Source: Nitrospira sp.
GTDB lineage: Bacteria > Nitrospirota > Nitrospiria > Nitrospirales > Nitrospiraceae
Assembly: GCA_035252115.1 (NCBI GenBank)
Contig: DATFDJ010000194.1
Location: 16,704 to 80,703 of the forward strand
Reading direction: 5' to 3'
DNA length: 64,000 nt
This document shows, one piece after another, positions 27,324 through 29,792 of the stretch. The notes below the pieces were generated by a model. It searched no databases and had not been told where the DNA came from. It saw only the letters and a list, made by a program, of their open reading frames with translations. Positions within the stretch are counted from its first letter, which is position 1, and each line of letters opens with the position of its first letter. The translations under genes were made by a program, and so were the position numbers.

Positions 27324-29792
27324 TCATTCCACTTTTTCGACGAGGATCCGAAAATGCGCCGCTTCAGGCCCCAGCGGTTCCTGTGCATGCACGAGATGAC
27401 CGTCGTTCTTGAGGCTCATCGGCACGTTCTTGATCGGCTCACCGGCATCCAGCCACACTTCCAGCTTGTCGCCCGCATCCATCATTTCCAATTTGAGCTT
27501 CGTCTTCACATAATTCATCGGACAGGCCACGCCGCGCAGGTCATAGACGGGAACATCGATCGGTGGAATATCGGGCACAGAAGCGGCAGGAGGCTTCTCC
27601 GCCTCCTTCTCGGCAATCGCCGCAAGCCTGAGATCCTTTCCCATGTGATCCGTTGCGGCGCGGCAGGCGTCCACGAATCCTTTGGCGAAGCCCATCTTCT
27701 CGCACGCAAACTCCGCCGTCGTCTCCTTCGGTCCCAAATCGCCCACTCGCTTCCCAAGTTCACGGTAAGCCGATGGAACGGTGCCCTTTCTCGCAATTCG
27801 ATTTTCGAACTCCAGGAACGTATCGGCATCGGTGGACGGCTCGACGCCTTCCGTGACGAGCAACGCCTTGGCGGCGGCGAGCACGGCCCGGTAGGACTTA
27901 TTCACCGACACGGCATACTGGTGTTTGTCCAACAAGAGCTTGGCCTGATAGAGCTCCTGATCGGCTTCGAGAATCCCGTTCTCGATCATCTCCAGCGCTC
28001 CGCCGGCGCACTCGCCGGGCCCGAGATCCTCAAGCACGAATTCCTCCTCTCCTTCCCAGTCATAATAGAACGTCGGATCGTCGGCAAACGAGGGAGCGAT
28101 GGTGTAGGGAATCAATTCGTCTTTGAGCACGTTCTTGCCCACACGGTCAATAAAAGATGGAAGCTTTTCACCGATCTTGCGATCACGCCGATACACGTCA
28201 ATCAAATGGGTAATCGCCGCCGGCACCGCCTTGGCCGGCAACTTGACGGTCATTTGCCCGATTTTTGCCGTCCCATTGACCGTGCCGCCCAGGTGCAACT
28301 CGTAGAACGGCGCGGTATGTTGGCCGAACCGCTTGCCGACTCCATGCAGGCCGATGGTCGCGATGTGATGTTGGGCGCAGGAGTTATGGCATCCACTGAT
28401 TTTGACGCTGACGTCGCTCAAATCGTCCGGAACTCGTCCGGCAGGAAATACTTCCGCCAATGCACGGGCCAGCCCTTTCGATGAGGTAATGCCCAACCCG
28501 CAGGTATCGGTTCCCGGGCAGGCGATGATATCTTCCACGAGTTCGGCCCCCGGGTCGGAGAGCCCGTGAGCGGCAAGTTCCTCATACAGGTCGGCGATCT
28601 TGGATTCGGGGATCCATCGGACGATCATGTTCTGATTGATCGTCGTGCGGATGTTTCCGTTCGAATAACGTTCGGCGAGACCGGCGACGAACCACATCTG
28701 CTCGGAGGTCAGATCGCCCATGAACAACTTCACGACCGCCGCCACATATCCTTCTTGTTTCTGACGGACGACGTTCGTGCGCTTCCACATTTCGAACGGC
28801 GTTTCTTGATGCCCGTTCAGCCGTCCGCTCTCTTCCGTCCCGTTTCCACTCGAACCGTTCCGAGTCGGCATGATCAATGGAGTCGGCTCGTCTTCGTGAC
28901 GAAGTAATTTTACCGGCTCCTGTGAGGGCCGCGCATACCCCATTGCGCCATAGGCTTCTTCCCACCGCCGCTTGAATTCGGCAAAGCCGAGTTTTTCGAT
29001 GACGAATTTCATGCGGGCCTTGTTTCGATTCTTACGATTGCCAAGCGTATCGAACACTTTGATGACGGCTTCGATGCTCGGAATGAGTTCATCCATGGGC
29101 GTGAACTCGCGCAACACTTGAGCGATCCGGGGGGCCGATCCCAATCCGCCGCCGGCTACCATGCGGAAGCCGATCGTCCCGTCCTCTTTTTTGGCGGCAA
29201 GCAGGCCGATGTCATGAATCGGCGTCAGCGCGCAATCCCGCTGGCAACCGGAAAAGGCGATCTTGAACTTCCGAGGAAGACTTTGATTCAGCGGGTTGCG
29301 CAAAAGATGGTACGCCACTGTCTTTGCATACGGCGTGATGTCAAAGACTTCCCCCCGGCAGACGCCGGCCAGGTGGCATCCGGTCACATTGCGGACGGTG
29401 TTGGCGCACGCCTCGCGCGTCGTCAATCCGACCTCTGCCAATCCGCGCATAATGGTTGGGACATTTTTCAGCTCGACAAAATGCAATTGGATGTCCTGAC
29501 GCGTCGTCACATGCCCTACTCCCGTCGCATAGCGCTCTGCCAACTCGCCAATACGGCGCAATTGATTGGCCGTCAGGCCGCCGAATGGAATCTTGATACG
29601 CACCATCTGCACGCCGGCCTGGCGTTGTCCATAGATGCCGTACTGCAGGCGAAAAGGTTTGAACAAATCGCTCACGATCTCGCCGGACAGCATCCGCCCG
29701 GCTTCGTGCTCGAACGTCTCAATTTCCTCGGCGACGGCCGGAGGAATGGGTTGCGTTTCGATCGGGATGGGACTCAACGTTTTCGGACTCAT
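27324..29792 (-). CDS. Siroheme sulfite reductase hemoprotein fused to HEPN and TusA/SirA domains
   Basis: TTRQ, CPGTDTC and GCHNSC motifs; HEPN-like helical domain; DLRGVACPM TusA domain. Confidence 0.92.
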   Translation of the reverse strand: MSPKTLSPIPIETQPIPPAVAEEIETFEHEAGRMLSGEIVSDLFKPFRLQYGIYGQRQAGVQMVRIKIPFGGLTANQLRRIGELAERYATGVGHVTTRQDIQLHFVELKNVPTIMRGLAEVGLTTREACANTVRNVTGCHLAGVCRGEVFDITPYAKTVAYHLLRNPLNQSLPRKFKIAFSGCQRDCALTPIHDIGLLAAKKEDGTIGFRMVAGGGLGSAPRIAQVLREFTPMDELIPSIEAVIKVFDTLGNRKNRNKARMKFVIEKLGFAEFKRRWEEAYGAMGYARPSQEPVKLLRHEDEPTPLIMPTRNGSSGNGTEESGRLNGHQETPFEMWKRTNVVRQKQEGYVAAVVKLFMGDLTSEQMWFVAGLAERYSNGNIRTTINQNMIVRWIPESKIADLYEELAAHGLSDPGAELVEDIIACPGTDTCGLGITSSKGLARALAEVFPAGRVPDDLSDVSVKISGCHNSCAQHHIATIGLHGVGKRFGQHTAPFYELHLGGTVNGTAKIGQMTVKLPAKAVPAAITHLIDVYRRDRKIGEKLPSFIDRVGKNVLKDELIPYTIAPSFADDPTFYYDWEGEEEFVLEDLGPGECAGGALEMIENGILEADQELYQAKLLLDKHQYAVSVNKSYRAVLAAAKALLVTEGVEPSTDADTFLEFENRIARKGTVPSAYRELGKRVGDLGPKETTAEFACEKMGFAKGFVDACRAATDHMGKDLRLAAIAEKEAEKPPAASVPDIPPIDVPVYDLRGVACPMNYVKTKLKLEMMDAGDKLEVWLDAGEPIKNVPMSLKNDGHLVHAQEPLGPEAAHFRILVEKVE

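Follow-up and report, generated by a model that had tools for sequence, protein, structure and literature searches.

A Nitrospira sulfite reductase extended by HEPN-like and TusA-like domains, with a possible built-in thiol relay

The gene and the layout of its product

A stretch of 64,000 nucleotides from Nitrospira sp. (assembly GCA_035252115.1, contig DATFDJ010000194.1, positions 16,704 to 80,703 of the forward strand), called here the window, carries a gene for a sulfite reductase whose siroheme/[4Fe-4S] core is followed by a HEPN-like helical bundle and a TusA-like domain (Table 1). Two cysteines of the extension, C757 in the TusA-like domain and C595 at the junction between the core and the bundle, are invariant in all 46 divergent full-length relatives, and the fused gene is accompanied by genes of sulfate activation and reduction of adenosine 5'-phosphosulfate (APS). 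The fusion is a variant of a known enzyme, and it is the sole protein with the NIR_SIR domain in a genome that is 94% complete.

The gene is a single open reading frame coding for 822 amino acids, and ATG 29792 is almost certainly its real start, as there is a GAGG sequence 8 nt upstream and a database protein of identical sequence also has 822 residues. Residues are numbered from this codon. A longer reading, from TTG 29804, gives 826 amino acids; the Pfam scan was done on that reading, and the residue ranges of the Pfam domains are in its numbering. Two AlphaFold2 models, one of the full-length protein (predicted local distance difference test, pLDDT, 85.6; predicted template modelling score, pTM, 0.73) and one of the last 227 residues (pLDDT 82), agree in the layout: the core extends to about residue 570 and is followed by the junction (571-596), the bundle (597-715), the linker (716-747) and the TusA-like domain (748-822), so that the extension beyond the reductase core comprises ca. 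250 residues. The presence of HEPN-like and TusA domains after the core, claimed in the first-pass annotation, was thus borne out by Pfam, AlphaFold2 and Foldseek. Joining of the TusA-like domain by a programmed frameshift was considered and rejected, since the reading frame is unbroken and no homopolymer run occurs in the linker.

Table 1. Features of the sulfite reductase gene, its operon and the window
Feature	Position	Strand	Residues, motifs and evidence
Rrf2-family regulator (CymR/IscR-like), first gene of the operon	29801-30247	-	Pfam Rrf2, 118.6 bits; ends 8 nt from the reductase start
Sulfite reductase-HEPN-TusA gene	27324-29792	-	822 amino acids
Sulfite reductase core, two NIR_SIR_ferr + NIR_SIR modules	28083-29753	-	residues 14-570; Pfam, NCBIfam, PDB sequence matches
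Second CX5C...CX3C motif, N-terminal module	29232-29378	-	C139, C145, C183, C187
Junction, with invariant D578 and G-x-G-E-C motif	28005-28082	-	residues 571-596; alignment; C595 codon at 28008-28010
HEPN-fold helical bundle	27648-28004	-	residues 597-715; Pfam, AlphaFold2, Foldseek
Literal R711-x4-H716 (RAATDH)	27645-27662	-	C-terminal part of the bundle's last long helix
Flexible linker, variable in length and sequence	27552-27647	-	residues 716-747; pLDDT below 50 in both models
TusA-like domain, motif DLRGVAC-P-M-N-YVKTK	27327-27551	-	residues 748-822; C757 codon at 27522-27524
cysH, APS-reductase type, with Fe-S cysteines (CC...CTHC) and ECGLH	26584-27288	-	NCBIfam NF002537, 277 bits, over cut-off
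TrpD/YbiB-like glycosyltransferase-family-3 protein	25487-26587	-	overlaps cysH and cysD by 4 nt each
cysD	24693-25490	-	Pfam, NCBIfam
cysN fused to a partial APS-kinase-like domain (cysNC)	22730-24643	-	Pfam, NCBIfam
mnmA	61598-62707		

Reductase core and the two invariant cysteines

Within the core Pfam recognises NIR_SIR_ferr and NIR_SIR in two copies (E 1e-38 and 3e-57; 192.9 bits for NIR_SIR), which is the two-module pseudo-dimer common to the ferredoxin-type sulfite and nitrite reductases of solved structure, i.e., NirA/SirA of Mycobacterium tuberculosis (1zj8), the tobacco (3b0h) and spinach (2akj) nitrite reductases, the maize sulfite reductase (5h8v) and CysI of Escherichia coli (1aop). 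The sequence matches to this set range from E 5e-54 to 2e-25, the nearest solved proteins being the plant nitrite reductases and NirA/SirA. The Nitrospira protein shares with them the CX5C...CX3C cysteines of the second module, represented here by C425, C431, C468 and C472, which bind the siroheme/[4Fe-4S] centre and are invariant in 46/46 relatives, as well as the Arg/Arg/Lys/Lys anion site. In an alignment of 51 sequences R134, K175 and K177 of this site are invariant, and R98 is nearly so (at least 90%). Location in an operon with sulfate-activation genes is a further likeness. None of the proteins compared has the extension composed of the GEC junction, the HEPN bundle, the tether and the TusA domain.

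The residue at the position of the second anion-site lysine, lysine or asparagine, separates sulfite from nitrite reductases, as known from the structures of CysI and of the plant nitrite reductases. The anion site reads PRKFK in the Nitrospira protein and PRKWN in the tobacco nitrite reductase, with K177 aligned to the asparagine. The invariant cluster cysteines, the PRKFK site and the cysH, cysD and cysNC genes that follow together point to sulfite rather than nitrite as the substrate, and the assignment as a nitrite reductase was rejected on account of the sulfite-type anion site and the sulfate-assimilation operon. All the NCBIfam equivalog models score below their cut-offs, the best being the NirA family (285 against a cut-off of 523), which places the protein in a divergent branch of the assimilatory siroheme sulfite reductases. 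Judging from these sequence features, the gene encodes an assimilatory, ferredoxin-type siroheme sulfite reductase, the only one of the organism, with a predicted six-electron activity.

Besides the cluster cysteines of the second module, the N-terminal module of the Nitrospira protein has kept a four-cysteine motif of its own, which is absent from the first module of the structurally characterised reductases; in the tobacco enzyme the corresponding positions are occupied by N, D, S and Y. The motif is nearly all-or-none among the 46 relatives: it is complete in 20 of them, Nitrospira included, partial in 5 and missing from the rest. Such a pattern points to an additional Fe-S (or siroheme/Fe-S) site in a part of the family, including Nitrospira.

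The last domain is recognised by the Pfam TusA model (PF01206; 55.2 bits, cut-off 28.6, residues 754-824) and is predicted to adopt a two-layer alpha/beta fold with the order beta-alpha-beta-alpha-beta-beta (pLDDT 83-96 in the AlphaFold2 models). The closest structures found by Foldseek are TusA/YhhP (3lvj_C, TM-score, i.e., template modelling score, 0.82; 1dcj, TM-score 0.77) and YeeD (8j4c), and the PDB sequence matches are 1jdq and 1je3. It thus has a fold like that of TusA/YhhP, YedF and YeeD (1dcj, 3lvj, 1je3, 8j4c, 1jdq), and its conserved cysteine likewise opens helix 1; however, those are free proteins with a CPxP motif, while the Nitrospira domain has CPxN and is tethered to an enzyme. 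The CPMN sequence had been described in the first-pass annotation as a variant of CPxP. The VACPMN sequence is indeed present, but it is not a one-off variant, as CPxN is the signature of the whole subfamily: P758 and N760 are as invariant as C757, CPxN is found in 120/120 Nitrospira clusters, and in every member examined the motif is CPxN followed by [YF]-[VI] and never CPxP. On the basis of this signature the CPxN domains are classed as a distinct TusA subfamily. A second loop, LDxGxPxxNVPxS, is nearly invariant across phyla; invariance of both loops over such distances is what would be expected for a fixed docking partner. Loss of the TusA cysteine among orthologues would have spoken against a sulfur-carrier role, and its conservation in the 46 relatives and in all the Nitrospira clusters speaks for a function that depends on this thiol and is linked to the reductase.

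It is worth mentioning that the same genome codes for a free TusA-like protein of 84 amino acids with a CPYN motif, ca. 60% identical to the fused domain (L002 1465-1719, forward strand). Its gene adjoins rsmI-like and ccsA-like genes, as judged by eye, and similar free copies are found in many Nitrospirota genomes.

The second invariant cysteine, C595, was overlooked in the first-pass annotation. It lies in the GxGEC motif, which is present in 120/120 Nitrospira clusters, in a junction modelled with lower confidence than its surroundings (pLDDT of 75 and 56 for its blocks in the full-length model). Beyond it begins the four-helix up-down bundle, predicted as such by AlphaFold2, whose score with the Pfam HEPN model (PF05168, residues 612-658) is just over the threshold (24.9 bits, cut-off 22), and which matched five HEPN entries in Foldseek. 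Its fold is shared with the HEPN proteins AF_0298 (2hsb; TM-score 0.81, the highest value, root-mean-square deviation 1.9 Å), TT1696 (1ufb), ST0689 (1wol) and sacsin (3o10), from which the bundle differs in having no conserved Rx4-6H motif and no nucleotidyltransferase partner, and in acting apparently as a spacer inside a metabolic enzyme. The first-pass annotation saw no RxxxxH nuclease motif here; literally one is present, R711-x4-H716, but R711 is kept in 6/46 and H716 in about 1/46 relatives, close Nitrospira relatives having Q in place of H, so the statement holds in substance. The lack of conservation excludes a nuclease function in practice, and a HEPN nuclease or toxin was rejected also for want of a partner gene. 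The near-invariant positions of the bundle are hydrophobic residues and glycines only, and the bundle is best described from the alignment as a non-catalytic spacer. The linker that joins it to the TusA-like domain, ca. 30 residues long and predicted to be disordered, is gapped and unconserved in the alignment.

HEPN domains commonly dimerise, and two cysteines per chain would provide four ligands per dimer. This allows a structural or cofactor role to be considered, in which C595 and C757 are ligands of a metal or an Fe-S cluster shared by the HEPN dimer, or the TusA-like domain merely stabilises the enzyme and carries no sulfur. The departure of the motif from CPxP and the extra four-cysteine motif in the N-terminal module of about half of the family fit such a role. 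A long disordered tether would nevertheless be unusual for a cluster ligand, and the surface loops of the TusA-like domain are conserved far beyond the needs of fold stability; this explanation is therefore considered quite improbable.

Operon, distribution and genomic contexts

Among the 38 Nitrospira loci long enough for the gene order to be judged, the order Rrf2 gene, reductase gene, cysH, trpD-like gene, cysD, cysNC is kept in 37. The Rrf2 gene lies upstream of the reductase gene in all 38; the product of the copy in the window scores with both the CymR and the IscR models of NCBIfam (103 and 86 bits, respectively), each time under the cut-off. cysH begins 35 nt after the reductase gene. 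The TrpD/YbiB-like gene is likewise present in 38/38 loci, and in a distant class of Nitrospirota such a gene (L111 8233-9360) lies directly downstream of the reductase-TusA fusion. The APS-kinase part of CysNC covers positions 2-107 of the 152 in the Pfam model (59.7 bits) and is perhaps vestigial; the cysH product belongs to the APS reductases with Fe-S cysteines. The operon was reported in the first-pass annotation to lack cysK/cysM, cysG and the flavoprotein gene cysJ, which is correct for the operon itself; a gene for CysK/M does exist at another place in the genome.

The C-terminal module is found in 50/50 sampled genomes of Nitrospira's own family, that of the nitrite oxidisers, and in 24/24 of a second family belonging to the same taxonomic order; in most cases within the phylum it is part of an open frame of ca. 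800-900 amino acids. It is also present in other Nitrospirota classes, at 32-48% identity. Among 1.84 billion representative proteins there are 919 matches, including 45 full-length clusters of 26-49% overall identity, and the labelled carriers of the fusion belong to Nitrospirota, Nitrospinota, Poribacteria and 'Lambdaproteobacteria'. The best 80 related loci in genome contigs are all in records labelled Nitrospirota, one of them titled Nitrosospira. When the best 150 clusters (50% identity) were scanned with local hidden Markov models, 82 were found to comprise the core, HEPN and TusA; the remaining ones are short, with HEPN and TusA, TusA only, HEPN only or, in one case, the core and HEPN, and a different partner domain was not found in any of the 150. 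The clusters with HEPN and TusA only are 150-290 amino acids long and may represent either fragments or split genes. Four proteins of 501-524 amino acids (P0169, P0175, P0207, P0242) have one NIR_SIR_ferr + NIR_SIR module before the HEPN and TusA tail, which may reflect either a reductase split over two genes or truncation of the gene call.

In more distant Nitrospirota the fusion is accompanied by another set of sulfate-pathway genes. Three loci (L109, L110, L111) have an Rrf2 gene, aprA (772 bits, over the cut-off) and aprB upstream of it, and in one of them (L110, 5313-11622) sat was confirmed downstream; a fourth locus has cysH upstream and sat downstream. The association with sulfate activation and APS reduction, i.e., cysH, cysD and cysNC in the window, and aprAB with sat in the other classes, is thus retained. 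DsrA was not found above the cut-off in five distant genomes carrying the fusion, while CysK/M is present above the curated cut-off in all five as well as in the Nitrospira genome (6/6 checked). A dissimilatory or reverse Dsr-like pathway was rejected as an explanation of the aprAB-sat context on these two grounds, and in these classes assimilation apparently relies on an APS reductase of the AprAB type.

The constant vicinity of an APS-reducing enzyme, here CysH encoded directly downstream, makes it conceivable that the TusA cysteine acts on the substrate side, either by bringing oxidised or sulfane sulfur to the siroheme, as a cysteine thiosulfonate or persulfide derived from thiosulfate or polysulfide, or by taking sulfite over from APS reductase, with the consequence that sulfite would never be free. 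The domain resembles YeeD, a member of a thiosulfate-uptake pair (8j4c), and TusA/DsrE homologues can carry thiosulfate on a cysteine (Liu et al. 2014, reference 54 of PMC10504309). On the other side, the neighbouring APS reductases work by two unrelated mechanisms, thiol-based in CysH and flavin-based in AprAB, so a CysH-specific hand-off cannot be general, and no thiosulfate transporter or rhodanese is seen in the operon. A substrate-side carrier is accordingly regarded as rather unlikely.

A TusA domain of the CPxN type (CCPMN, in the sequence …GVCCPMNFVRAK…) is also found at the C-terminus of a different siroheme reductase, encoded in another Nitrospirota family (L105 5132-6289, forward strand). 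This AsrC/Dsr-like protein of 385 amino acids shares with the Nitrospira fusion the CPxN TusA domain at its end, but its single reductase module has a ferredoxin inserted into it and the HEPN domain is missing, and its gene is followed by NifS-like desulfurase and CysK/M-like genes. The CPxN domain therefore occurs on two reductase architectures with varied neighbours, its constant partner being a siroheme reductase and not any particular neighbouring gene.

Two invariant cysteines, one on a loop of the core and the other on a tethered domain, could also form a redox switch: a reversible C595-C757 disulfide would dock the TusA-like domain as a cap over the substrate channel and keep the oxygen-sensitive reductase off when oxidised. 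The hosts include aerobic nitrite oxidisers, and a redox-active thiol domain is fused to the APS reductase of plants, which may be counted in favour of such a switch. However, the small reductase just described carries the CPxN domain with no HEPN spacer, in a different family, and TusA folds are, to our knowledge, not known as redox switches, so that this role appears unlikely.

The first-pass annotation proposed that sulfide is trapped on the TusA cysteine and passed straight to Fe-S assembly by the adjacent Mrp or to tRNA thiolation by MnmA, bypassing free cysteine. Conservation of the TusA cysteine is in keeping with this proposal, and in E. coli TusA feeds MnmA via TusBCDE. The gene content and gene order do not sustain it. 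mnmA is not part of the operon but lies at a distance of 34 kb, and no partner of the TusBCDE type is seen near the reductase gene. The Mrp gene, located downstream, is separated from the operon by a gap of 182 nt, and it is syntenic in 20/38 Nitrospira loci and in 0/6 more distant ones. Moreover, besides the CysK/M found in every genome checked, the Nitrospira genome encodes a full-length IscS-like cysteine desulfurase (636 bits) and a canonical TusA with a CPMP motif, the latter next to a probable DsrE-like gene (judged by eye). Direct delivery to Mrp or MnmA is accordingly very unlikely; a cysteine bypass is not supported by gene content, and the CysK-cysteine route probably stays the main sink.

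Possible role of the tethered thiols

The domain order, the predicted folds, the invariance of C757 and C595 and the constant association with genes of sulfate activation and APS reduction are observed. The two invariant thiols, one in a core loop and one in a tethered domain, together with the strict tie of the CPxN domain to two siroheme-reductase architectures, argue for a thiol function exerted at the reductase itself. The reading tentatively preferred here, at somewhat less than even chances, is that of a sulfite reductase with its own thiol relay handling sulfur at the siroheme site, on the product side. In such a relay the HEPN bundle would serve as a rigid spacer and perhaps as a dimer contact, and the disordered tether would let C757 reach the siroheme pocket of the same or the partner subunit. 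C757 would take up reduced sulfur at the siroheme as a cysteine persulfide, with C595 acting as a relay or resolving thiol, and the sulfur would then be handed on or released under control; in this way an aerobe could keep free sulfide from escaping.

Several points weigh against the relay. In classical assimilatory sulfite reductases all six electrons are transferred and sulfide is set free with no help of a protein thiol. The presence of CysK/M in every genome checked implies that cysteine can be made without a carrier. The CPxN motif departs from the CPxP of the proven sulfur carriers, and the stand-alone CPYN paralogue sits in a non-sulfur context. Finally, sulfide and a thiol give no persulfide unless an oxidant is present, a caveat omitted in the first-pass annotation; formation of a persulfide product would thus require either that the reduction stop at S(0) or that the two cysteines pass through an oxidised state.

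The former possibility recalls DsrC, which acts with DsrAB and has two conserved cysteines on a mobile element. By analogy, the siroheme would stop at S(0), and C757 together with C595 would remove the sulfur as a persulfide or trisulfide, so that it could leave the siroheme site protein-bound; CPxN TusA domains, fused or free, would then be dedicated partners of siroheme reductases in several phyla and two reductase classes. If this were true, an assimilatory sulfite reductase would yield protein-bound sulfur and not free sulfide. The likeness is one of analogy only, as there is no relation to DsrC in sequence or fold: no DsrC match was found in the fusion with Pfam or NCBIfam, and the fold is TusA-like and not that of DsrC/TusE. 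The two cysteines of the Nitrospira protein are ca. 160 residues apart, on a loop and in a separate domain, and, in contrast to the DsrAB/DsrC system, the reductase is an assimilatory one, and no DsrA was found in five related genomes, as mentioned above. Catalysis of the DsrC kind is for the time being a speculative and rather improbable extension of the relay.

Whichever role the thiols have, their presence sets this branch apart. In the textbook view assimilatory sulfite reductases release free sulfide, while the fusion branch has an invariant tethered thiol pair, and this branch supplies the only sulfite reductase found in the Nitrospira genome. If the thiols act in turnover, sulfate assimilation would end in a different way in the carriers of the fusion and would gain a mechanistic link to DsrAB/DsrC; if they are idle, the protein is merely a decorated sulfite reductase. 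To this picture the present analysis adds an invariant cysteine in the GEC motif, a CPxN signature shared by the whole subfamily, the occurrence of the fusion beside aprAB and sat, and the lack of gene-content support for a cysteine bypass.

A full-text literature search found no paper discussing or testing the fusion. The architecture itself, as the first-pass annotation had suspected, is already catalogued in public annotations: the NCBI labels read 'putative sulfite reductase, contains SirA-like domain (modular protein)' and 'sulfurtransferase TusA family protein', and the JGI label 'sulfite reductase (ferredoxin)'.

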